The notes: generated from the sequence alone by a model not told the origin. A stretch of 10,235 nt of DNA from an uncultured Deinococcales bacterium (GCA_964247135.1 CAXTTL010000176.1:1-10235), one strand, 5' to 3'. Positions 70 through 10,235 are shown, numbered from the stretch's first letter. Numbers and translations are program-made.

Positions 70-102
70 CTGCACCTGCTTTCTCCCAATTGGGATGCCT
101 TT

Positions 103-133
103 GTGCTGGCTCGAGCGGGTTTTTCGAGCTATG
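103..133 (-). promoter_or_regulatory. Double-CTCGAG upstream motif, copy 1 (degenerate)
   Basis: + strand gtgctggCTCGAGcgggtttTTCGAGctatg; one hexamer has a mismatch; 7-nt spacer. Confidence 0.6.
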
Positions 134-147
134 ATTTTTTGGCAAGG

Positions 148-177
148 CTCGAGGTTCCAGTTTTCTGGAACCTCGAG
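148..177. repeat. Perfect 13-bp inverted repeat with CTCGAG ends
   Basis: CTCGAGGTTCCAG-TTTT-CTGGAACCTCGAG, downstream of the 242..688 gene. No U-tract on the minus strand, so a terminator role is uncertain. Confidence 0.7.
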
Positions 178-241
178 TGCCGCCTGTTGCGCGGGAATCC
201 GGTCGGGACCCGAGGATGGGAGGGGCGCAACACCCGAGGTT

Positions 242-688
242 TTAAGCGGCTGCGAACAGGTTGACTTGCCCTGGGCGGATTGCCAGGACTTGCGGGGCGG
301 CTCGCCTTGGCGCTCCGCGAAAAAATTCCAGGTTGTTGATGACAAAGCTTGCCATGTCTTCACTGGTGATTTCAGGTCCGTCGTAGGCGCCGAAACGTTT
401 GGCGAATCCGCCCAGGGTTTGAAGTTGTCCGGGACGTGGTTGTTTGCCGTCGCGCTTTACGCTGAAGTTGTCAAACAATGCTTCCCAGGGGATGAGTGTT
501 GGTTTTTCGCTCGTCCAGATCATGGTTTCAACTCCTTGTGAACGGTGAACCACGAAATTGATGATTTTGTCATTTTTGATTTCCGAGCATTTTTGCAGGT
601 GCGCATGTTGTTGCATGGTGGCGTAAGCGAGGGCTTTTGTGCGGGCGTTGCGGAGGGCGGTTTGCATTTGGATTTCGACTGGATTCAT
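242..688 (-). CDS. Hypothetical protein (148 aa) with a C-terminal QVNLF clamp-binding-like motif
   Basis: Start reassigned to ATG 688 because GAGGTG (700-695) lies 6 nt upstream. Preceded by a motif copy. Confidence 0.75.
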   Translation of the reverse strand: MNPVEIQMQTALRNARTKALAYATMQQHAHLQKCSEIKNDKIINFVVHRSQGVETMIWTSEKPTLIPWEALFDNFSVKRDGKQPRPGQLQTLGGFAKRFGAYDGPEITSEDMASFVINNLEFFRGAPRRAAPQVLAIRPGQVNLFAAA

Positions 689-707
689 GATTTTCACCTC
701 GCTGTAT

Positions 708-740
708 GATCTTGCTCGAGTGGGGTTCTCGAGCCACGGG
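708..740 (-). promoter_or_regulatory. Double-CTCGAG upstream motif, copy 2
   Basis: + strand gatcttgCTCGAGtggggttCTCGAGccacggg, between the stop at 748 and the RBS at 695-700. Confidence 0.75.
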
Positions 741-747
741 TTTGGGT

Positions 748-1215
748 TTAGGTGTTGGGTTTGTCGTGTTGAACCGAGAATTTTCCTGCTGGCAGGTTTT
801 GGGTCATGATGATCTGAATGTGTTTTTCGTCTTTCAACACGATTGAATCGTGTTCCTCACCTTTGGTTTTGTCTGGAATCAAGACCGCGTCGTATCCCGC
901 CGCCCAACAGGCGTTGATGACCTTGGTCTCGAGGTCGTTGAACAGGTACAAGCTTCGTCCCTCGAGGCATCGCTCGAGGGTTTTGCGTTCTGAGCGCTCG
1001 CGAAATATCGCTCTAACGCACTCAGGCTTGGTCAGATCGGCGATTACGGTCTCCTGTGAAATGTTGACCGTGTGAATCAGTCCACCAATTGGCGATTGCT
1101 GATACCACCACGCCGCATCCCAGGTGCTCGAGAGCCAAATGCCTGGACTGCGGGCGTCGGTTTGGAATTTGGATTTGGCGACATCAGTCAAAGTCATGCC
1201 GTGATACGCGATCAT
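748..1215 (-). CDS. Small ADP-ribosyltransferase-fold protein (ART-PolyVal-like), 155 aa
   Basis: Start reassigned to ATG 1215 (RBS GAGGAGG at 1226-1220). Motif order YHG...F...GIWLS...AxxY...GYDAV...E-x-x-x-IVL...HIQI matches the YHGT/GxYF/AxxY/GYDG pattern of H-Y-E-class ART-like domains. Confidence 0.65.
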   Translation of the reverse strand: MIAYHGMTLTDVAKSKFQTDARSPGIWLSSTWDAAWWYQQSPIGGLIHTVNISQETVIADLTKPECVRAIFRERSERKTLERCLEGRSLYLFNDLETKVINACWAAGYDAVLIPDKTKGEEHDSIVLKDEKHIQIIMTQNLPAGKFSVQHDKPNT

Positions 1216-1295
1216 CTTGCCTCCTCGGTTCACTGCAAGGTTTTTGAAAGGTCAAAAGTGTTCGATTCAGTTTTGACTTCTGGTGTTTTGCAATC

Positions 1296-1327
1296 AAAAA
1301 AAGGGGAGGGCGCAATGCGCCCTCCCC
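1296..1327 (-). terminator. Rho-independent terminator of the 1343..1759 gene
   Basis: Stem GGGGAGGGCGC-aat-GCGCCCTCCCC (1303-1327). A7 at 1296-1302 gives a U7 tail on the minus strand. Confidence 0.9.
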
Positions 1328-1342
1328 AGCAGTTCAAAAAGG

Positions 1343-1759
1343 TTAGTTCAATGCTTTTTTCGCTGCCTTGGCGATGGCGCGGCGTCTGGTTTCAGCGTTG
1401 TAGACGGTGAGCGCATCGCCGTGGATCGCTGGCACCTCGAGATTGAACTGGGTCAACAGCGCCACGATCGCGGGTTTGGTTGGACCGGCGAGTTCGGCGG
1501 CGCGTTTTTCGGCGGCGCGTTGCTGAAGTTTCTCGAGTCCATTCGCCCGCTTTTCGCGCCCGACGCCGCTGGCGGTGAGTTCTTCAACCTTTTTCAAGTA
1601 CACATTGACGGCTTTGCCGTGGTTGCTCGGGACTTTCTTGATGCCAATGGTTTGCATCAGTGTTTTCAACTCGGGCTTGGTCGGACCGGCGTTGCGGGTG
1701 GCGATCTTCTTGGCGCGGTTGTTGTTGAGTTTCTCGCGGATTGCTGCGGTGATGTTCAT
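1343..1759 (-). CDS. Basic repeat protein A (138 aa, 2 repeats), putative nucleic-acid binding
   Basis: Start reassigned to ATG 1759, because the longer ORF reads through the motif and leader. Repeats AGPTKPELKTLMQTIGIKKVPSNHGKAVNVY and AGPTKPAIVALLTQFNLEVPAIHGDALTVY. Paralog of 2175..2786. Confidence 0.85.
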   Translation of the reverse strand: MNITAAIREKLNNNRAKKIATRNAGPTKPELKTLMQTIGIKKVPSNHGKAVNVYLKKVEELTASGVGREKRANGLEKLQQRAAEKRAAELAGPTKPAIVALLTQFNLEVPAIHGDALTVYNAETRRRAIAKAAKKALN

Positions 1760-1812
1760 ATTTCCTGCTTTCTGCCCCGTGCTGGGGCGGTGCTGCGTTG
1801 TCCGTTTGGGAC
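1760..1812 (-). promoter_or_regulatory. Conserved two-hairpin 5' leader
   Basis: Minus strand GTCC-CAAAC-GGAC...GCCCC-AGCAC-GGGGC-AGAAAGCAGGAA; near-identical to 2787-2839. Confidence 0.65.
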
Positions 1813-1818
1813 ATCTTT

Positions 1819-1851
1819 GATCTTGCTCGAGCGGGGTTCTCGAGCTACGGG
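1819..1851 (-). promoter_or_regulatory. Double-CTCGAG upstream motif, copy 3
   Basis: + strand gatcttgCTCGAGcggggttCTCGAGctacggg. Confidence 0.75.
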
Positions 1852-2174
1852 TTTGCTTTGGTTTGAGGTCAACCACCTTGTTGGGGACTTGGCTGAATCC
1901 TCGAACCGAAGCCGCTCAAGAGAAATTGAGCTATAGGTTGTTGGTTCTCGAGCTGAGTCTGCCCGAGCTGGTTTTTGTTGCTGCTGAGGCGTTCGGAAGG
2001 GCTGGCGATCACCCTTCATTGACTCTACGAAGCCGAGGCATTGATGCTGGATTGTGAATTCACCGAAAGCGTTTTGCTGGGGCAAAATGGTTCGCCTCGC
2101 CATGGGACGCATCCCAGTCCGGTACGAGAGGGGAGGGTTGAGGTCACGCCGTTTTGGGCGTGATCTTAGGGTGG

Positions 2175-2786
2175 TTAGGCGGCGATGGCTTTGTTTTTCG
2201 TGACTTGGTTGTAAATCAACACCGCCTCGCCGTGCGTTGCTGGCACGTTTAAGCCCAGGCGTTCGAGGTGGTTGACCATGCCTTTGGTTGGGACGCCCGC
2301 GTGTTTGGTGGCTCGAGCGTGGCTGGCTTTGTTCTTCAATTTTTGCAAGCCTCGAGCACGACGGTTTGCGCTGTTTTCAGGCGTTGCACGTTTGGCACAA
2401 AGCTCGTTGTAACGAAGTGCAGCCACGCCATGGATGGCTGGAATATCTTTCTTCTTCATGCCCAAGCGTACCAACAGGTCTTTCAAGGTGGGTGTGGTGG
2501 GACCTTGGTCTTTCTCCAATTTCTTGAAAGCGTTTTTGACCTTTAACTTGTCCAAACTTGCGGCTTGTTTCTCTTCTTGGCTGCGCGTGCCTGTCCTCGC
2601 GGCAACCAAGCTGTTGTACATTTCCACCGCCTCGCCGTGAATGGCTGGCACGTGTTGCGGTTTGACCCCAAGGCGCTCGAGGTTTACCCGCAAGGTGTCT
2701 TTGGTGGCACCCGCATCGCGCATGGCACGTTGGACGAATTTTTGTTCCTCGAGTTTGCTGCGGACTGCTGCCGGCATCTTGCTCAT
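2175..2786 (-). CDS. Basic repeat protein B (203 aa, 3 repeats), putative nucleic-acid binding
   Basis: Three repeats: AGATKDTLRVNLERLGVKPQHVPAIHGEAVEMYN, QGPTTPTLKDLLVRLGMKKKDIPAIHGVAALRYN and AGVPTKGMVNHLERLGLNVPATHGEAVLIYN. K/R-rich, with AGGA upstream of the ATG. Confidence 0.85.
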   Translation of the reverse strand: MSKMPAAVRSKLEEQKFVQRAMRDAGATKDTLRVNLERLGVKPQHVPAIHGEAVEMYNSLVAARTGTRSQEEKQAASLDKLKVKNAFKKLEKDQGPTTPTLKDLLVRLGMKKKDIPAIHGVAALRYNELCAKRATPENSANRRARGLQKLKNKASHARATKHAGVPTKGMVNHLERLGLNVPATHGEAVLIYNQVTKNKAIAA

Positions 2787-2839
2787 ATGTTCCTGCTTTC
2801 TGCCCCGTACTGGGGCGGTTTTGCCTGTCCGTTTGGGAC
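2787..2839 (-). promoter_or_regulatory. Conserved two-hairpin 5' leader
   Basis: Minus strand GTCC-CAAAC-GGAC...GCCCC-AGTAC-GGGGC-AGAAAGCAGGAA; matches 1760-1812. Confidence 0.65.
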
Positions 2840-2845
2840 GCGAAA

Positions 2846-2880
2846 GTTCTTGCTCGAGCGGGGTTTGCTCGAGCTATGGG
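2846..2880 (-). promoter_or_regulatory. Double-CTCGAG upstream motif, copy 4 (9-nt spacer variant)
   Basis: + strand gttcttgCTCGAGcggggtttgCTCGAGctatggg. Confidence 0.75.
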
Positions 2881-2896
2881 TTTCGGGTGTTTGGTT

Positions 2897-2931
2897 AAGA
2901 AACAGGGGAGAGCGTCGAGCGCTCTCCCCTG
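2897..2931 (-). terminator. Rho-independent terminator of the lipoprotein gene
   Basis: 12-bp stem CAGGGGAGAGCG-tcgag-CGCTCTCCCCTG (2903-2931), followed by TTTCTT on the minus strand. Confidence 0.8.
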
Positions 2932-2954
2932 GTCAAAGGTTGTTGAAGTGAAAT

Positions 2955-5201
2955 CTATCTTGGAAAGTAAAACCGTGTAATTAGCGCATCGCTGTTGGGG
3001 ATGATGTTAAAGATGGTGCCCACGACATAGATTTTGCCGTTGAGCGGGTCGCGGGCGACGGCGTTGCCATAATCGTCACTTTCACCGTTTACATCGGTCA
3101 GCCCACAATTGCCGCTGGCTGTGCCGTTGACCGTCAAAAAGCGTTGGCAGGCGATGTCGTGATCGTTCAAAACGCTGCCAAGTGGATTCACCAGGTCACC
3201 GGCGATGATGATATTGCCGTTATTGTCAAGGATGATTGATTTGGCGCTGAGCTTGCCGGCGCTCGAGTATGGATCATTGGAGTTGAAGCCGTCGCCTGAA
3301 AATGTGGTGTCGACCAAGCCGGTCTTCAAAAAGCGTCCGATGGCGAAATCACCGCTCGAGCCACCGGTTGAACCGGCAACCACGATCCGTCCAGCCGCGT
3401 CGACGGTCACGGCGTTGGCTTCCTCGACGCTCGAGCCTGGGAAACTGATTTGCAATTGTCCGGTGGTGTTGATGGTTGGATCTATATTGCCGTTGACGCT
3501 AAGTTTGGCAATGAACCAATCTTTTGTTCCAGCGTTGTCGGTGGTGCCTGCCAAGTAAATTTCGGTGGCGTTCGCGGCGGCGATCCCGCCCAGGACCTCG
3601 TCGAATCCACGATCAACACTTTGCTTGCCGTCGCCGCTAAAATTCACGTCGAGCACACCGGTGTTCAGCACTTTGAAGGTTAGGTAATCCCTCGAGCCGA
3701 CAGCGCCTGTGGTGCCACCAATGTACAGGGTGTCTCCCAGAACCGTCAACGCCGTGCCGGTGTCCATCGTGTTCGCGCCAAAATCCACCACCAGCAAACC
3801 GTCTCCCGAGAAACTGGTGTCAAGTGCGCCGTTGTCCAAAAGGCGCATGATGCCAACTTCGGTGTCACCGTTCACCGTGTCTGTGACCGTTCCAACCACG
3901 TCGATCGCACCGTTGATGTCAACTTTGACCGCGTTGGCGACCGCGTTGCTGTAGCCTGGGCCAAAATTGTAATTGGCGCTGCCGTCTGTGTCAAAGCTGG
4001 TGTCTTTGGTTCCATCGCTGTTAAAACGCCTGACGATAAAATCGCTGCTTGGACTGCCCGAACCCACGACCACCAGGCGGCTCGAGCTGTCAATGATGGC
4101 ACCGTTGGCTTTGTCGTTGGTGGGACTGCCAAAGTTATCACTCAGCGCTCCACCCGACCAGTAGCAGTCATCAATGGAGCCGATGCCGACGTTGAAGCTC
4201 GATGGCAAGAGGTTCGCGTTGGTGAAAGTGCCGCTGGCGTTCGCGGTTGGGATTTGGCAGAGGTTCTCGACGCTTAGGGCTGAAAAGTTTTTGGAGCTGC
4301 CCGCCAACATTTTCACTGTTCCGGTCGGCAAGGTTTTGGCGGCGATCGTGCCTGTGGCTTGTTCTTCGAGACTTTGGGTGGTGCTCGCAAGGGTTTGATT
4401 GCCTGCCGCGAAATCGAACGCAAACGCCCAGGGTCGGCTGGCACGAGTCGAGCCGATCACGAATGGAACCTTAAATGCGAATGTGATGTAGCCTTGGCAC
4501 ACATTGCTGGTGCAACTATTGGCTACCCCAGGTGCGCCGTTGGTCGCACCGATAGCGCGACCCGAATTGGTGGCATTCCGGGCGACGTAGCCGTAACCAA
4601 GCACACCGGCTGTGTTGATGCCATATGCCGCGTTCAATTGTCCTGCAACGTCGGCGCGTTCGCTGGGGCTGATGATTTGCAAGTCCGAGGTGTCAGAGTT
4701 GATCTGCACCTCACCGGTGTAGCTGGGTTTCACGCCGTGAATCGGTTGGATGTTGCGGATTTGCACGCCGTCCGTAATTGCGGCGCCAGCGGCGTTGTTG
4801 ATGACCGTGAACATCGTGCCGAACTGGGTCGGCGTCGGAGCTTCGCCGCTCGGCACCGGAACGTCAAGCGCCCAGGTTGTGAAATTGTTGATTGGGCTGG
4901 CGGTGTTGTTTCGCACACCGAAGGTAGCGTAGACCGTTCTGACGCCAGCCAGTTCGTTGTCGTGGAATCCAACCCCAAGGCGCGTGAAGCCAAAGGATAC
5001 CGAGGGCAGGACGGATGCGGCTCGGGTCTGCTTAGGGCTTTTGATCTTGGCGCTCGCCTCGTTGGTGGTGAGATCAATTTTGACCTCGAGCAAACCGATC
5101 GGCGTTTGTGCCGGGGTTGGAGGTTTGGTGGGTTCGATGCTGGGACAAGCCACCAAACCCAGACTGAGGGCGAGGGCGAAGACGAGGACGGTTTTTTTCA
5201 T
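2955..5201 (-). CDS. Surface lipoprotein (748 aa) with C-terminal delta-60-type beta-propeller repeats
   Basis: Signal peptide MKK plus hydrophobic core plus lipobox LVA-C. RBS AAGGAG (5212-5207). Repeats such as RFNSDGTKDTSFDTDG, RLLDNGALDTSFSGDG, NTGVLDVNFSGDG and RFLKTGLVDTTFSGDG, with G[RK]IVVAG strands. Confidence 0.88.
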   Translation of the reverse strand: MKKTVLVFALALSLGLVACPSIEPTKPPTPAQTPIGLLEVKIDLTTNEASAKIKSPKQTRAASVLPSVSFGFTRLGVGFHDNELAGVRTVYATFGVRNNTASPINNFTTWALDVPVPSGEAPTPTQFGTMFTVINNAAGAAITDGVQIRNIQPIHGVKPSYTGEVQINSDTSDLQIISPSERADVAGQLNAAYGINTAGVLGYGYVARNATNSGRAIGATNGAPGVANSCTSNVCQGYITFAFKVPFVIGSTRASRPWAFAFDFAAGNQTLASTTQSLEEQATGTIAAKTLPTGTVKMLAGSSKNFSALSVENLCQIPTANASGTFTNANLLPSSFNVGIGSIDDCYWSGGALSDNFGSPTNDKANGAIIDSSSRLVVVGSGSPSSDFIVRRFNSDGTKDTSFDTDGSANYNFGPGYSNAVANAVKVDINGAIDVVGTVTDTVNGDTEVGIMRLLDNGALDTSFSGDGLLVVDFGANTMDTGTALTVLGDTLYIGGTTGAVGSRDYLTFKVLNTGVLDVNFSGDGKQSVDRGFDEVLGGIAAANATEIYLAGTTDNAGTKDWFIAKLSVNGNIDPTINTTGQLQISFPGSSVEEANAVTVDAAGRIVVAGSTGGSSGDFAIGRFLKTGLVDTTFSGDGFNSNDPYSSAGKLSAKSIILDNNGNIIIAGDLVNPLGSVLNDHDIACQRFLTVNGTASGNCGLTDVNGESDDYGNAVARDPLNGKIYVVGTIFNIIPNSDALITRFYFPR

Positions 5202-5372
5202 GTGATCTCCTTGACAAAGGTTGACTTTGTTGCGTCGTCAGCCTATGTCGATTGATTGAAGCAAAAGTTGTAAACCCGACAAGTGGGTTTGTTGGTTTTT
5301 CAAAAATAGGGACTGGTTACCCAAAAATGTTGTCATGCGGAGTGTTAGGTTTTTTGGTTATCACCGCTTGAG

Positions 5373-5597
5373 TTAGTCAACCAGTCGGCATTCTTCGAGT
5401 GTTCGGGCATAAAGACGATGGAAGCGCGTACCGTTTTTAAGGACGTTTTTCAAAGCCCAAGTCAATTTGTCGTCGTAAGTCCCATGTACCGGAAATGTCG
5501 AGACGCGCACTCGAGGCTTAATTCGCCAACTGAATCTTGGCTCGTGCGTAACTTTGATATATCGTTCCTCGAGAACAATCGTTTTGATTGGTGGCAT
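5373..5597 (-). CDS. Hypothetical basic protein (74 aa)
   Basis: ATG 5597 lies 7 nt after the stop of the upstream small ORF, with AAGGA as a possible RBS. Co-oriented with its neighbours. Confidence 0.55.
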   Translation of the reverse strand: MPPIKTIVLEERYIKVTHEPRFSWRIKPRVRVSTFPVHGTYDDKLTWALKNVLKNGTRFHRLYARTLEECRLVD

Positions 5598-5604
5598 GAA
5601 CGGC

Positions 5605-5739
5605 TCATTCCTTGGCTCGAGCCGTGTACGCCCGCACCGCGTAGATTTTGATTTGCGTCATTCGCGCTTCACGCTCACGTTTTTGTTTCACGGCGGCTTC
5701 GAATTGAGGAATGATTACTTTGAGAAACCACCTGTTCAT
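5605..5739 (-). CDS. Small hypothetical protein (44 aa): MNRWFLKVIIPQFEAAVKQKREREARMTQIKIYAVRAYTARAKE
   Basis: Manually translated. GGAGA (5750-5746) lies 6 nt upstream of ATG 5739; TGA at 5607-5605. Fills the gap between neighbouring genes and is below the ORF-track size cut-off. Confidence 0.6.
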   Translation of the reverse strand: MNRWFLKVIIPQFEAAVKQKREREARMTQIKIYAVRAYTARAKE

Positions 5740-5769
5740 GTTTTGTCTCCAATCAACACCATAAGTGAA

Positions 5770-5793
5770 GGGAATGCCAAACTTGGCATTCCC
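5770..5793 (-). terminator. Hairpin downstream of the 5811..6065 gene (possible weak terminator or processing stem)
   Basis: GGGAATGCCAA-ac-TTGGCATTCCC; imperfect minus-strand tail TTCACTTAT. Confidence 0.5.
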
Positions 5794-5810
5794 GATTTTG
5801 GATTGCCTTT

Positions 5811-6065
5811 TCAGGCGTTGGCACCGACGCTGCGCGGCGCTGGCGCGGCAAGCACTGAGTAATCAGGGTGACCGTGGCGTTTGGTGAATTCAAACTGGCT
5901 GATGCGGTCCAAGCCTGCCATCTCGAGGTTTTTGAAGTTAGAAACCACTTCTTGCACGCCGTCGTTGACGATCGAAACGAATTCGTGCCCCATTTGTCCG
6001 ATGGTGAACGTGTACTCGTGGTTGCGGATGTTTGCGACCCAACGGCTCAAGTGACGTACTGGCAT
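5811..6065 (-). CDS. Hypothetical protein (84 aa)
   Basis: Start reassigned to ATG 6065 (GGAG at 6074-6071). Lies downstream of motif copy 5 and a two-hairpin leader. Confidence 0.65.
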   Translation of the reverse strand: MPVRHLSRWVANIRNHEYTFTIGQMGHEFVSIVNDGVQEVVSNFKNLEMAGLDRISQFEFTKRHGHPDYSVLAAPAPRSVGANA

Positions 6066-6132
6066 GATGACTCCATTCAATGCGGTGTCCGCATTTTGAA
6101 CTTGCCCTGAGAGCGTCTCAGGTTCTGGAGTT

Positions 6133-6163
6133 GACCTTGCTCGAGTGGGTTTCTCGAGCTACG
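6133..6163 (-). promoter_or_regulatory. Double-CTCGAG upstream motif, copy 5
   Basis: + strand gaccttgCTCGAGtgggtttCTCGAGctacg. Confidence 0.75.
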
Positions 6164-6178
6164 CTGTTGAATTTGGGC

Positions 6179-6829
6179 TTAAAACGGTAAGTCCAGTCCT
6201 GACTGAGCGGTTTGCGGCATTGGTTCATTCGCTTCTGGCTGCAGCGCTTCGTTTGGGCGATTGAAGCTCTCAACGATCGCCCCGGCGAGCGAGTCGAAAA
6301 CCCCGCCGCTGCTGAGTTCCCAACCACCCTCGACTTCGGTTATGGTTTCGGTGGTGGGGCTTTCGTTGATGAACAATTGAAATTCCTTGAGGTTGGCGGT
6401 TGTGGTTTCGAGCCTGATGGAGGCTTGTTCGTAATCAGGCTCGCCGTAACCAAACTCACAACGAAAATCATCGAGATCATTGCCCTCCTCGAATTCGTCC
6501 TCGAAATCGTTGATGTCCTCCGAGTAAGCAATCACAATGTCTCGCAACATCGATTCACTCGCAACACCCTGACCAGGCAAAAGCAATTGAAAGCCTTGCG
6601 GCATCACCAAATACGCATCTTCTCCCTCTTCAAGCACGTCACCGACCGACAAGGACCGATGACCGTGATCCGCACCGATGCCAGCTTGCAGTTCAGCGAA
6701 TGCCGCTTCCAGGTCTGTTGCCTCGAGCAAACCGTGTGGTTCGTGCGTTTCGGTTAGCGTTTCGAGATTTGCTTGTGGGACGAGCATTGCGAGGACGTTT
6801 TTGGCCAGCCAAACTTTATAGGTTTTCAT
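6179..6829 (-). CDS. YodL-like domain protein with a highly acidic C-terminal part (216 aa)
   Basis: LEAAF...HRSLSVGDVL...AYLVMPQGF resembles the YodL signature (LExxF...RSLSVxDVV...YxxxxxGF). RBS GAGGTG (6839-6834). About 43 D/E versus 9 K/R by manual count. Confidence 0.75.
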   Translation of the reverse strand: MKTYKVWLAKNVLAMLVPQANLETLTETHEPHGLLEATDLEAAFAELQAGIGADHGHRSLSVGDVLEEGEDAYLVMPQGFQLLLPGQGVASESMLRDIVIAYSEDINDFEDEFEEGNDLDDFRCEFGYGEPDYEQASIRLETTTANLKEFQLFINESPTTETITEVEGGWELSSGGVFDSLAGAIVESFNRPNEALQPEANEPMPQTAQSGLDLPF

Positions 6830-6845
6830 GTTTCACCTCGCAAAT

Positions 6846-6875
6846 TTCCTTGCTCGAGCGGGGTTCTCGAGCTGC
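6846..6875 (-). promoter_or_regulatory. Double-CTCGAG upstream motif, copy 6
   Basis: + strand ttccttgCTCGAGcggggttCTCGAGctgc. Confidence 0.75.
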
Positions 6876-7035
6876 TGAATTTGTACTGCGCCAGCTTGGC
6901 TTTACTCAGCAACGTGTTGCTTTTCCTCAAACCAAAAACCAAACTCGTACTACCCTGAAATCGTTCAGTGTACGAAGTCAGAATTTCTGATTTCCGATCG
7001 CTGAATGCGATCCGTACAACTGGCAGAGGAGTCTT

Positions 7036-7191
7036 ATGGTTTGGATCAAGATTTTGGCTTTTGGTCATTCAAGTTGGTTTCAAGTGCCCGTCATGCAGCT
7101 CGAGGCACTCAAAACGGAGTTGTTGTCCCAAGGTCATAAGCTGCTTGAGACGCTCACCGAGACTGATCTGAACAGGGTCTTGTACGGTTAG
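7036..7191 (+). CDS. Small plus-strand protein (51 aa): MVWIKILAFGHSSWFQVPVMQLEALKTELLSQGHKLLETLTETDLNRVLYG
   Basis: Manually translated. GAGGAG (7026-7031) precedes ATG 7036; TAG at 7189-7191 is followed directly by hairpins and a plus-strand T-tract. Not in the ORF track. Confidence 0.65.
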   Translation: MVWIKILAFGHSSWFQVPVMQLEALKTELLSQGHKLLETLTETDLNRVLYG

Positions 7192-7196
7192 TCGCC

Positions 7197-7249
7197 CAAG
7201 GCTTTTGCCTTGTGTGGTCAAAACAAATTGTTTTGACCACTTTTATTTT
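7197..7249 (+). terminator. Tandem hairpins / plus-strand terminator
   Basis: CAAGGC-tttt-GCCTTG (7197-7212), then GTGGTCAAAACAA-a-TTGTTTTGACCAC (7214-7240), then TTTTATTTT. Confidence 0.65.
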
Positions 7250-7325
7250 GTGACTGCACGGTCTGGACATTTTTTAAACACGGGGAACGTTATGTTCCCT
7301 CGAGCATCAATGCCCGCGTGTTTGC

Positions 7326-7808
7326 TCACCCTTTGCCTTCCTCGCGGATGTTCATTAGCATTTTGCCCAACCGGTTTTGACCGATCCCGGTTTTAAGGTC
7401 AACCCCCCAAAAGCGGTCGCCCCAGGCGTTCCCCTCAGCAATGTGCAATTCGCCAGTGTTTTGCAAAAGCCGCCCCAGGCTCGGGATGCTAAACTTTTGC
7501 CGTACCAAGTCCAGCATAATTGCCTCTTTCACGCTGTTCCAGTCGGCGTGAACCATAATTTCTTTACCAAGGCGTTTGGCTTCAAATGCCTTGAGTCCAA
7601 CGAACCGCAAGGCATCTCCTGGGTTTGCACATTTCGCTGCCTGGTACGCGCCTTCAACATGCTCAAACTGAAGGTCTTCTTTCAATCCCGGCAGTAATTT
7701 GGCACTCAATCGAACTCGAGCCAACCAGAAGTTTGAGAGAAACCGAAACTCGCCCTGGAATTCACGGATTGCATCGGTTGAACTTGCGCCAATGTTTAAG
7801 TTATTCAT
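7326..7808 (-). CDS. NADAR family (YbiA-like) protein, 160 aa
   Basis: Motifs FLSNF, VEGAYQAAK, AKRLG, W...K..IM.....QKF, L...L..TG...IAE, WGDRFWG and GQNRLGKMLM.IR are typical of NADAR proteins. Confidence 0.93.
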   Translation of the reverse strand: MNNLNIGASSTDAIREFQGEFRFLSNFWLARVRLSAKLLPGLKEDLQFEHVEGAYQAAKCANPGDALRFVGLKAFEAKRLGKEIMVHADWNSVKEAIMLDLVRQKFSIPSLGRLLQNTGELHIAEGNAWGDRFWGVDLKTGIGQNRLGKMLMNIREEGKG

Positions 7809-7814
7809 GCCGTT

Positions 7815-7847
7815 GATCTTGCTCGAGCGGGGTTTGCTCGAGCTACG
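7815..7847 (-). promoter_or_regulatory. Double-CTCGAG upstream motif, copy 7 (9-nt spacer), directly before an apparently leaderless ATG
   Basis: + strand gatcttgCTCGAGcggggtttgCTCGAGctacg. Only 6 nt separate it from ATG 7808, and there is no SD sequence. Confidence 0.78.
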
Positions 7848-7850
7848 CTT

Positions 7851-7885
7851 TTGATGGTGGGCAGTATCAACTGCCCCACCATCAA
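7851..7885 (-). terminator. Hairpin after the helicase stop codon
   Basis: TTGATGGTGGGCAG...CTGCCCCACCATCAA, 14 bp with one bulge. It lacks a minus-strand U-tract. Confidence 0.5.
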
Positions 7886-7889
7886 GATT

Positions 7890-9959
7890 TCAGTTTAGAC
7901 GTTGAACCGAACGCTCCCGCCAGTACGTTTCTGCCATGGCGCTGACCTCGAGCCGACCCCGCATCCCATACCGTTTTGCATCATCCAGTACCGAGGTGAT
8001 CAGCACCCCAGCTTCTTTGAGCAATGCCTGGGCTTTGAAGAACCGTTCAAAGTACCGCTCGAGTCCCAGTTCATCAACACTCCGTGCAACCTCGAGCGTT
8101 TCTTGCGGCGTCCACGAACGCGGATGCACTTGCAAGGCGTCTCCGACCACCACCATGCTCGAGAGCAGCTTTTCGATCAACGCCTCGTCAAAGAACCTGG
8201 ATCGTTTGCCCAACCGGGTGAACAAATGCAGCTTCTGACGGCAACGCGTCACCCCGACGTAAAACAATCGGCGTTCGTCCGCCAAGTTGCTCTCACTCGG
8301 AAATGCCCCATGTGGCAGCACCCCGTCGTCAACGTCGGGCATGATCACCACATCCCATTCCAAGCCCTTGCTCGAGTGAATGCTGCTCAACGTGAGCGCC
8401 TGATTGTGAACCAATGGGTTCAGCAACATCTCGAGTGTTTCACGTGCGTTGATTGAGGCACAAAAATCCTCGAGCAACGCCGCCTTGCGCGGATCACGCT
8501 TTTCATTCCAGTGCCAAGCCGCGTGCTGCGCGGTTTGCCGCATGGCTGCCTCGAGACTCAAGTGCTTCAAGTCAAGCGTGAACTCGAGCACTTCGAGCGC
8601 CACCTCGCCCGCGTGACCGACCTGATTTAAAGCCTGGGTCAAACCCTTGCCTTGCTCCAAAATCAACATTGGCACGTCTTTTAAAGCCTTTTTCAGTTGA
8701 TGGTCGAAACCCGCCACCAACCACGACCAACGGTTTTTCAGGTGGCTGCCATCCTCGGGCGTCCATTGAACCCGAGGCACGCCGAGCAAACCAGACAACC
8801 AAAACGCAGCCATCAATGCCAATCCCTCAGCCCGTTCGCGCAGCGCCTCACGACCCTCAAGCCGGTACGGAATGCCCGCCTTCAACAACCTCGACTCGAG
8901 CGCCGTGCTGTTGTTGAAATTGCGCACCAAAATCGCCACGTTCTCTAAACCGCCCGAGTGGGCTTCCGCCGCAACAACTTGCGTGATCTCTTCAGCCATG
9001 TCTGCTTGAAGACCGAGCTGGTACAGTTTGGTTTCACCACCAAAACCGAGCGTCAACGACGCCTGTTTCACTTCACGGTCGCTGTTGTTGGCGATCACCC
9101 GATTCGCCAGACCCAAATGACTCGCCTGGCAGCGAAAATTGTCCGAGAGCACGAACTTCTTGGCTTGCCAACGACCCTCAAAATTCAGAATGTGCGAGCT
9201 GCTCGCACCCTGAAACGAAAATATGCACTGGTCGTCATCGCCCAAAACCATGATGTTGCGGTCTCGAGCCGCGATCAGATCCACCAAACCCGCCTGGGCG
9301 AGATTGACGTCCTGATACTCGTCGATGAACAAACACCTGTAACGGTTTTGCACCCGCTCGAGCAACTCCGGACGGTTGCGCAACAGCAGCCACGCGTCGG
9401 CAATCAGATCACAAAAATCCATCAAACCACGCTCGAGCCGAATCCGCTCGAAAGCCCGGTACACCTCGAGTAGCCCACCGTGCAACTGCGACGCACCCAT
9501 CGGGATGAGTTCACCAACGGCACGCCCGAGGTCCGCGAACACCAGGTTCGCCTTCCACAACCTGACATGCTCGAGTAACACCTCCGGCGCCAGATTAGCC
9601 TGGCTGACCTTTACTGCCGCCGCCGCCGCCCCGAACAACTTCATCGAATCCAGACTCAGCTCGGGCGACCAATGTTCGCGCACCGCAACATTGATGATTT
9701 GACGCGCCAGTCGGTGCGTGGTGCCGAGTTCAATCCCAGAGCACAGCTCAAAGTCCTTCAATTTTCGCTCAATCGCATTGACCGAAGCGTTCGAGAAGCT
9801 GCCAGCAAAAATTTCACGGGCATTGAACACACCTTCACGTACCAAACGTTCGGCTCGAGCGACCATCGCCGTCGTTTTACCCGCGCCCGCGACGGCAAAA
9901 ACCAGCGCGGGTCCCAAATCGTGCTCGACGACCGCCATTTGTTCTGGAATCAGTTTCAT
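7890..9959 (-). CDS. UvrD/REP/PcrA-family SF1 ATP-dependent helicase (689 aa)
   Basis: Walker A AVAGAGKT, Walker B IDEYQD, motif III GDDDQCIFSFQGA, IV NFR, V IHSSKGLEW and VI ERRLFYVGVTR. RBS AGGAGG (9969-9964). Confidence 0.95.
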   Translation of the reverse strand: MKLIPEQMAVVEHDLGPALVFAVAGAGKTTAMVARAERLVREGVFNAREIFAGSFSNASVNAIERKLKDFELCSGIELGTTHRLARQIINVAVREHWSPELSLDSMKLFGAAAAAVKVSQANLAPEVLLEHVRLWKANLVFADLGRAVGELIPMGASQLHGGLLEVYRAFERIRLERGLMDFCDLIADAWLLLRNRPELLERVQNRYRCLFIDEYQDVNLAQAGLVDLIAARDRNIMVLGDDDQCIFSFQGASSSHILNFEGRWQAKKFVLSDNFRCQASHLGLANRVIANNSDREVKQASLTLGFGGETKLYQLGLQADMAEEITQVVAAEAHSGGLENVAILVRNFNNSTALESRLLKAGIPYRLEGREALRERAEGLALMAAFWLSGLLGVPRVQWTPEDGSHLKNRWSWLVAGFDHQLKKALKDVPMLILEQGKGLTQALNQVGHAGEVALEVLEFTLDLKHLSLEAAMRQTAQHAAWHWNEKRDPRKAALLEDFCASINARETLEMLLNPLVHNQALTLSSIHSSKGLEWDVVIMPDVDDGVLPHGAFPSESNLADERRLFYVGVTRCRQKLHLFTRLGKRSRFFDEALIEKLLSSMVVVGDALQVHPRSWTPQETLEVARSVDELGLERYFERFFKAQALLKEAGVLITSVLDDAKRYGMRGRLEVSAMAETYWRERSVQRLN

Positions 9960-9975
9960 CTTTCCTCCTGCAAAT

Positions 9976-10007
9976 GATCTTGCTCGAGCGGGTTTCTCGA
10001 GCTACGG
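9976..10007 (-). promoter_or_regulatory. Double-CTCGAG upstream motif, copy 8
   Basis: + strand gatcttgCTCGAGcgggtttCTCGAGctacgg. Confidence 0.78.
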
Positions 10008-10202
10008 TGTTTTGCTTTTTGGTTGACACGGCAAGGTAAATTGACGTTTCCAACGCTTGCCAAAACTTAAAGCAAATCTGTGACGACTCAAATAACCGCT
10101 TGACTTCACCAAAACACCATTCAAATAGCAATTGCAAATGCAGCACTCAATGTCGTTAGAAACCTCAAAACGTGCTCGAGCGTTCTTGGTCAGGTCACTC
10201 AC
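10002..10202 (-). CDS. Hypothetical protein (about 66 aa; start uncertain)
   Basis: Co-oriented ORF whose TAG stop lies inside motif copy 8. No clear RBS. Confidence 0.35.
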   Translation of the reverse strand: MSDLTKNARARFEVSNDIECCICNCYLNGVLVKSSGYLSRHRFALSFGKRWKRQFTLPCQPKSKTP

Positions 10203-10235
10203 GACTCTGACCGTTAGGTTTTACGGTTCCCTTTG

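Follow-up and report, generated by a model that had tools for sequence, protein, structure and literature searches.

Promoters of the T7 type are conserved contiguously through the start site, from -17 to +6. In activator-dependent phage promoters a box takes the place of the -35 element, as in the middle promoters of T4, which use MotA/AsiA, and in the late promoters of Mu and P2. In the promoters used by the virion polymerase of phage N4, a hairpin with a stem of 5-7 bp and a loop of 3 nt stands just 5' of the start, and in promoters of the MerR/HspR type a dyad operator is situated in the spacer between -35 and -10 elements that lie 19-20 bp apart; the HAIR operator has the form CTTGAGT-N7-ACTCAAG. 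The early (AAATATATATTAT-6N-G) and late (AACA-6N-T-A/G) promoters of phage AR9, along with those of phiKZ, comprise an extended conserved motif, a short variable gap and a fixed start, according to an excerpt of PMC5312081. In Deinococcus-Thermus, leaderless mRNAs with a TANNNT box and promoters made up of a -10 motif only, located beside open reading frames (ORFs), are documented in excerpts of PMC4007540 and PMC12340547. Here we describe a repeat of ~35 bp that occurs eight times on a stretch of DNA of 10,235 nt from an uncultured Deinococcales bacterium (GCA_964247135.1, CAXTTL010000176.1:1-10235; the whole stretch is referred to as the window). The eight repeats probably form a single family of element-specific, factor-dependent promoters on what is probably a phage-like contig, and would direct transcription from a point 14 +/- 2 nt after the repeat's proximal CTCGAG.

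Read on the minus strand, the copies conform to the pattern (A-rich tract)-YRTAG-GCTCGAG-(AAMCCCR or CAAACCCCG)-CTCGAG-CAAGATCA, in which 6-8 nt separate a distal from a proximal CTCGAG palindrome. Each copy is named below after the coordinate of its proximal CTCGAG (110, 715, 1826, 2853, 6140, 6853, 7822 and 9983), and offsets are counted downstream from that site. The string GCTCGAG-N3-5-CCCN-CTCGAGCAAG has seven exact matches, compared with 0.00 expected from shuffled sequences; the eighth copy (110) is degenerate, with CTCGAA as its distal palindrome and CCAGCA as the hexamer at offsets 1-6. Elsewhere this hexamer is CAAGAT (four copies), CAAGAA, CAAGGT or CAAGGA (one copy each), and 7 nt then lead to offset 14, which confirms an initial annotation of the window that had placed CAAGAT and its variants in the -10 slot 7 nt before that position. 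All eight copies lie in non-coding DNA, which accounts for 19.5% of the window, and each is oriented with its gene and found directly 5' of the start codon (P ~8e-9). These features of motif, placement and geometry are observed directly. The 24 nt upstream of the copies are 41% A (79/192), against a background of 26% (P=4e-6), giving an A-rich upstream tract as in UP elements. A scan for sigma-70 promoters returned three sites in the window where 4.3 were expected, with none at the eight copies or in any intergenic region; the repeat is therefore the sole promoter candidate for eight of the 12 minus-strand genes.

The first element to appear downstream of the proximal CTCGAG is an ATG in one copy, the first base of a Shine-Dalgarno (SD) sequence in three, one of them shifted by 1 nt, and a 5' hairpin in the remaining four. 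The SD sequences start at offsets 14, 14 and 15 and the hairpins at offsets 13/14, 14, 15 and 18; no translation signal or hairpin is seen before offset 13/14 in any of the eight copies. The initial annotation had listed what stands at offset 14 in each copy, and all eight of its coordinates, with the accompanying counts, are right against the sequence. Its remark that a hairpin follows just after an A at 96 and 6126 is accurate at 96, where the hairpin comes directly next, but only approximate at 6126 (copy 6140), where a strong CCUGAGA stem begins 4 nt later. The conservation profile is consistent with a start in this region: offsets 1-8 are conserved, offsets 9-12 are variable, and a C at offset 13 (6/8 copies) is followed by a purine at offset 14, after which nothing is conserved. 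A pyrimidine-purine step occurs at 13/14 in seven of the eight copies, compared with 0-4/8 at the other offsets from 9 to 20 (P=3e-4, uncorrected). In five copies offsets 12-14 read G-C-R, and a sixth has this triplet shifted by one (P=1e-5 if the copies are independent).

The gene encoding a NADAR-domain protein bears on the same point. An SD core is present within 18 nt of the start codon (<=18 nt) in 11 of the 12 minus-strand genes, the NADAR gene being the sole exception, and it is the only gene with its ATG at offset 14. This ATG, at 7808, is the first start codon of the open frame, and use of the next one would shorten the protein by 28 residues and cut into the beginning of the NADAR domain; the NADAR mRNA is predicted to be leaderless. 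Leaders of 10-61 nt would precede the other seven genes. The long ones among them fold better than their shuffled counterparts (z = -2.4 to -3.3), with z = -1.6 for the short leader of copy 110; stem-loops at the 5' terminus stabilise bacterial mRNA. A start near offset 14 is thus suggested by the placement of the repeat, the lack of anything before offset 13/14, the SD-less ATG at 14, the C/R step and the return of identity between two paralogous leaders from offset 14, described below. This internal evidence is best accounted for by the original proposal of a promoter that starts RNA about 14 nt beyond the proximal CTCGAG; offsets 12-14 are inseparable on it.

About four classes of leader can be distinguished: the hairpin leaders of a set of paralogs, an SD cassette, the structured leader of copy 6140 and the leaderless NADAR message. 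In every class the first downstream element is located at offset 14-15 (or 18), and none comes earlier. The leaders of copies 110, 1826 and 2853 are homologous and belong to paralogous genes (37% identity). Two of them differ at offsets 5-13 (ATCAAAGAT vs AACTTTCGC), with identity restored exactly at offset 14; the third also has a hairpin at this point, but its stem is shifted, being TCCC/GGGA where the others have GTCC/GGAC. The leaders of copies 715, 6853 and 9983 share an SD cassette of the form ...TTTGC-SD-AAAnATGAA, and the SD start at offset 15 in copy 715 would be explained by a 1-nt insertion relative to copy 6853. Across the corresponding stretches (676-750, 6817-6888 and 9947-10018) the candidate promoter, the SD and the first codons (ATGAA) are homologous in front of three unrelated genes, and look like a portable expression cassette. 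They are reminiscent of the promoter-stem-loop (PeSL) cassettes of T4-type phages.

The travelling of promoter, leader and start codon as homologous cassettes, as in T4 PeSL, would also suit a repeat with a non-transcriptional role, be it a cassette boundary or recombination sequence, a repeat resembling repetitive extragenic palindromic (REP) sequences or miniature inverted-repeat transposable elements (MITEs), or a terminator that would act on the plus strand against antisense transcription. A plus-strand terminator-like site does overlap two of the eight copies, at 107-131 and at 2866-2889, where the stem involves the distal palindrome only. However, no copy has a plus-strand gene upstream of it, so the copies are not placed as plus-strand terminators would be, and the only plus-strand gene in the window has a terminator of its own (7214-7240). 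Nor do REP elements or recombination sites keep strictly to the orientation of genes and at a fixed distance from translation signals, whilst a role as cassette boundary would be compatible with promoter function. A purely non-transcriptional repeat is therefore regarded as very improbable.

Promoter function having been favoured, it can be asked what kind of promoter the repeat would be. The initial annotation saw a -10 element with C instead of the usual first T, which is too simple a description. Matched against a -10 hexamer, the box keeps A2 in 7/8 copies but T6 in only 5/8, and T1 and T3 in 0/8; its invariant positions are C1 (8/8), A3 and G4, and the A/T positions required of a sigma-70 -10 are less well conserved than CAAG. 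C1 owes its invariance to the inverted repeat GCTCGAG...CTCGAGC, in which it belongs to the outermost pair, and the dyad overlaps the box by this 1 nt. TANNNT is found in 0/8 copies between the proximal palindrome and offset 14. At the -35 position, 16-18 bp 5' of CAAGAT, the sequence is GTAGCT or TAGCTC, a 2/6 match to TTGACA by eye. The annotation had also suggested that an activator or some other factor might be needed; in view of the missing -35 and the result of the sigma-70 scan (0/8) this is plausible. Several other assignments were rejected by eye: sigma-54 (no GG-N10-GC on either strand), integron attC sites (no GTTRRRY), CRISPR or iterons (the copies are scattered and lie close to genes) and a single-strand promoter of the Frpo type (the hairpin fails to rebuild a -35/-10 duplex).

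The retention of A2 and T6, the bases critical for -10 recognition, would be explained if the repeat were a promoter for host sigma-A that needs only CAAGAT, the doubled CTCGAG then acting as operator for an overlapping repressor or switch protein, bound as a dimer or dimer of dimers and centred at about -23/-24. The palindromic arms suit a dimeric DNA-binding protein whose dyad reaches 1 nt into the box, and -10-motif-only promoters have the precedent in Deinococcus-Thermus cited above. Nevertheless, the lack of any TANNNT and the invariance of C1 and G4 speak against recognition of this kind, the half-site distance of 13 in some copies and 15 in others is awkward for a rigid dimer, and no regulator gene was recognised in the window. 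The Deinococcus-Thermus frame of the initial annotation is itself sound in print, but the contig is not tied to it: the relatives of its helicase are taxonomically mixed, and no host call can be made from them. We consider a host promoter of this type unlikely.

The inverted repeat can also be viewed as a hairpin. As single-stranded DNA or RNA it would form a stem of 7 bp closed by a loop of 7 nt; in the copies with 15-nt spacing (2853 and 7822) the stem is 8 bp and the loop is again 7 nt, so that the 2-nt insertion lengthens the stem, not the loop. This is weak evidence, as it may reflect one event and would occur by chance about 1 time in 4. In the degenerate copy the loop is 9 nt. A stable hairpin with a constant loop in both spacing variants would be expected if the repeat acted as RNA, either within polycistronic read-through transcripts, where the hairpin would direct an endonuclease or binding protein and offset 14 would be a processing site, or as a regulatory hairpin in the 5' untranslated region (UTR). 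The conserved GC/R junction could then be the cleavage site. Two copies lie 13 and 19 nt after the upstream stop codon with no terminator between, and read-through RNA would include the repeat in these cases; the copy at 2839-2878, by contrast, comes 25 nt after the canonical terminator at 2931-2903. Both arms are the same self-palindromic hexamer, and this hexamer is enriched 20-fold in all reading frames, which argues that the arms are read as DNA sites and are not mere complementary RNA arms. The stems are invariant, hence show no covariation, and at 7-8 bp are too short for RNase III, whilst the A-rich tract and AT-rich box fit a region of DNA melting. Action at the RNA level is thus distinctly unlikely.

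Numbered from a start at offset 14, the proposed promoters would have their dyad centred on -23/-24; the box would span -13 to -8, and the A-rich tract would extend from about -60 to -40. This geometry can be compared with the systems introduced above. As in AR9 and phiKZ, near-identical copies stand at the front of genes, with a long block, a variable gap of 4-5 nt, a pyrimidine-purine start and no -35/-10 consensus. Unlike those AT-rich promoters, the repeat is GC-rich and palindromic and no polymerase gene is seen in the window; also, the excerpt of PMC5312081 gives 5' UTRs of 26-491 nt for AR9, against 0-13 nt for four leaders here. The repeat departs from T7-type promoters in that offsets 9-12 are variable and conservation ends 5 nt before the predicted start. 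The NADAR copy, in which 7 nt separate a -10-like hexamer from the ATG and an SD is lacking, resembles the TANNNT leaderless promoters of Deinococcus-Thermus; however, the box is CAAGAT, with TANNNT in none of the copies, only one of the eight is leaderless, and ~27 further bases are conserved upstream. With T4 middle and Mu and P2 late promoters the repeat shares a retained -10-like element and an apparently element-specific site ~30 bp upstream in place of the -35, but in the repeat this place is taken by a doubled 6-bp palindrome extending as far as the -10 box, which itself is far from TATAAT. The inverted repeat immediately 5' of the start region recalls N4, although the stem is 7-8 bp and the loop 7 nt (9 nt in the degenerate copy). 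Finally, the 7-N7-7 layout and the position of the dyad centre resemble HAIR and the MerR/HspR type, without a recognisable -35 at a spacing of 19-20 bp.

That the repeat is a promoter, where it would start RNA and that it requires a factor are all predictions. In the favoured reading, a factor that reads the doubled palindrome would position RNA polymerase. Candidates for this factor are an activator, a dedicated sigma-like subunit and a private polymerase, any of which would be encoded outside the window. The CAAGAT region, with A2 and T6, would melt, and the RNA would begin with the purine that follows the conserved C, at a distance of 14 nt (+/- 2) from the proximal CTCGAG. The mRNAs would begin with AUG (NADAR), with an SD (three genes) or with a 5'-terminal hairpin (four genes), which would protect the RNA.

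A number of observations weigh against this reading. The leaders represent only ~4 independent classes, so part of the common geometry reflects common descent. The purine at offset 14 had been counted correctly by the initial annotation (7/8), but taken alone it is weak, with P=0.05 at one offset and the same 7/8 at offsets 12 and 20; the C at offset 13, the step at 13/14 and G-C-R, of which that annotation made no use, give stronger signals. As RNA the repeat would fold into a stable hairpin (-11.6 to -15.2 kcal/mol), which could have a role at the RNA level. The genes at 748-1215 and 2955-5201 are preceded by terminator-like hairpins and have no copy of the repeat, so another type of promoter or read-through must exist. 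Pfam, PHROGs and NCBIfam revealed no gene for a sigma factor, polymerase, regulator or methylase in the window; no nucleotide relative of the window turned up among phages or plasmids, and no genome with several copies of the motif among 185,579 species genomes.

The building block of the repeat is itself unusual. CTCGAG occurs at 59 sites in the window, compared with 2.2 expected, and at ~20-fold enrichment is by far the most enriched hexamer. Coding sequence holds 38 of the sites, distributed 23/7/8 over the three frames, whereas 1000 rounds of synonymous codon shuffling yielded 5.4 +/- 2.2 sites and never more than 14. Leu-Glu dipeptides are also in excess (37 vs 16.2 expected), and 23 of the 37 are written CTCGAG. 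Density varies between genes: it is 0 per kb in 242-688, 1.5 in 6179-6829, 2.1 in 7326-7808 and 2.7 in 2955-5201, and ranges from 7.7 to 8.9 in the high group, which includes 5373-5597, the helicase gene at 7890-9959 (7.7) and 748-1215 (8.5). This gap might separate long-resident from recently acquired genes. A hyper-abundant palindrome is known from cyanobacteria, namely HIP1 (GCGATCGC; an excerpt of PMC5861425). Like HIP1, CTCGAG is over-represented beyond codon usage and in all frames, and biases the choice of codons and dipeptides; unlike HIP1, it is a hexamer, is found on a 10-kb orphan contig and doubles as a building block of candidate promoters. In PMC12700378, CTCGAG appears only as a giant-virus methylation site, and no report of the repeat motif or of CTCGAG over-representation was found in the literature.

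It is tempting to go further and to regard CTCGAG as the element's own iterated palindrome, the promoters being made from two copies placed 13-15 bp apart beside a CAAGAT box, with one factor that reads the state of CTCGAG and serves both as reader of a DNA mark and as determinant of promoter specificity. That state could be methylated or unmethylated, or duplex as against an extruded 7-8 bp hairpin or cruciform. This elaboration is speculative and rather unlikely to hold. If true, it would tie transcription throughout the element to DNA modification, replication or supercoiling, and would to our knowledge represent a transcription system without a described counterpart.

The simpler proposal of an element-specific promoter family would, if correct, define a compact and legible expression system in which one 35-bp signal sets the 5' end of the mRNA to the nucleotide, and the same promoter gives rise to leaderless, SD-first and hairpin-first messages. 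Its specificity element would be a doubled palindrome that is itself enriched 20-fold through coding DNA, linking the private promoters of uncultured mobile elements to the accumulation of palindromes in genomes. A private promoter family of a mobile element is a known kind of system; the twist is its assembly from the element's own hyper-abundant palindrome. In practical terms, GCTCGAG-N7-9-CTCGAGCAAG could be used as a probe to retrieve from metagenomes the rest of the element, its polymerase, sigma factor or methylase, and its relatives.

Searches for relatives gave little. The whole window had no megablast match among phages and plasmids, and a single 39-nt promoter copy had none among phages by blastn at E<=10. 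The motif scan of the 185,579 species genomes gave 16 single hits and multiple copies in none; all 16 came from high-GC stretches in unrelated taxa, lacked the CAAGATCA extension and were judged chance matches. In tblastn against phages the helicase reached an identity of at most 31.5%; its best protein relatives are 33-42% identical, and the lipoprotein has full-length relatives at 40-43% identity.

The window, which makes up an entire contig according to the protein database, has a G+C content of 53.9% and carries 12 minus-strand genes and one small plus-strand gene. Genes, terminators and copies of the repeat are listed in the table. The remaining genes matched no family in Pfam, PHROGs or NCBIfam, an Atlas look-up of the 148-aa and 51-aa proteins returned no usable match, and Rfam and tRNA scans of the window gave nothing relevant. 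Because of the gene content, the one-way gene order and the lack of relatives, a phage or other mobile element is suggested.

Table. Coordinates of genes, predicted terminators and candidate promoter copies in the window (P, predicted start at offset 14)
Feature	Coordinates	Strand	Details
UvrD/PcrA-like helicase, 689 aa	7890..9959	minus	Pfam 2.9e-41; PHROG 1967, 3e-83; 16 CTCGAG sites inside
NADAR-domain gene, 160 aa	7326..7808	minus	Pfam 2.2e-18; PHROG 1017, 6.6e-34
Lipoprotein-like delta-60-repeat protein, 748 aa	2955-5201	minus	
ART-PolyVal-like protein	748-1215	minus	sub-threshold match (E=4e-4)
Strong canonical terminator	7214-7240	plus	belongs to the sole plus-strand gene
Canonical intrinsic terminator after 138-aa paralog	1303..1327	minus	terminator scan
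Canonical intrinsic terminator after 748-aa lipoprotein gene	2903..2931	minus	terminator scan; candidate promoter copy 2839-2878 comes next
Candidate promoter copy, helicase	9969..10006	minus	GTAG-GCTCGAG-AAACCCG-CTCGAG-CAAGATCA-TTTGC-A; P = 9969, first A of AGGAGG; ATG 9959
Candidate promoter copy, NADAR gene	7808..7847	minus	15-nt-spaced, 8-bp stem; P = 7808, A of ATG; no SD
Candidate promoter copy, 216-aa acidic protein	6839..6876	minus	CAAGGA; P = 6839, first G of GAGGTG; ATG 6829
Candidate promoter copy, 84-aa gene	6126..6163	minus	CAAGGT; 61-nt structured leader (z = -3.3); P = 6126 (A); ATG 6065
Candidate promoter copy, 203-aa paralog	2839..2878	minus	15-nt-spaced, CAAGAA; P = 2839, first G of GTCCCAAACGGAC hairpin
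Candidate promoter copy, 138-aa paralog	1812..1849	minus	P = 1812, first G of GTCC-CAAAC-GGAC hairpin, same as at 2839; ATG 1759
Candidate promoter copy, 148-aa gene	701..738	minus	13 nt after upstream stop; P = C; GAGGTG from offset 15 (700)
Degenerate candidate promoter copy, truncated gene 1-69	96..133	minus	P = 96 (A), TCCCAATTGGGA hairpin directly next

The paralogs form an orphan family with members at 1343-1759, 2175-2786 and, truncated, 1-69, preceded by leaders at 1760-1812, 2787-2839 and 70-96. The leaders have a conserved two-hairpin layout and end in AGAAAGCAGG. The proteins contain two or three copies of a helical repeat of ~65 aa (..AGPTK..L..L....G..VPAIHGEAV..YN..). The AlphaFold model of the 138-aa member is all-helical (pLDDT 84.8) and has no match in the PDB at E<=0.001; a DNA-binding repeat of the SAP/HeH type, which was considered for this protein, is accordingly unsupported. 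The only relatives found for the 203-aa member are its paralog in the window and one 1784-aa repeat protein.

The NADAR gene is grouped with the ART-PolyVal-like gene and a gene for a very acidic 216-aa protein (6179-6829). This grouping suggests a function in ADP-ribosylation-related defence or counter-defence, the acidic protein possibly being a DNA mimic. The plus-strand gene (7036-7191, 51 aa) lies in the 450-nt gap between the NADAR gene and the next copy of the repeat and has a good GAGGAG SD. The orientation is one that a regulator might have, but there is no support for such a role. Two further intervals, 1846-2174 (330 nt between two paralogs) and 10007-10235 (230 nt at the end of the contig, upstream of the candidate helicase promoter), contain no convincing gene, RNA family or tRNA.

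Some minor sequence features were also recorded. The regions upstream of the two genes that lack a copy behind terminator-like hairpins, 1216-1302 and 5202-5372, both have no sigma-70-like site and both contain ACCTTT-(C/G)-(A/T)-CAA near the SD, possibly a second promoter class. Promoter-like strings with a single palindrome are found inside genes at 9352-9365 (+), 5085-5096 (+), 6722-6733 (+) and 8363-8376 (-). They include ACCCGCTCGAGCAA, which is antisense within the helicase gene, CTCGAGCAAACC, which occurs twice on the plus strand and reads GLLE on the minus strand both times, and CTCGAGCAAGGGCT, which lies in the sense direction within the helicase gene. Long perfect hairpins are present on the minus strand at 148-177 and 7850-7884, directly after genes and just 5' of copies of the repeat; the sequence that follows is A-rich, not U-rich, so they are not canonical terminators. 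The stem at 148-177 is capped by two CTCGAG sites.

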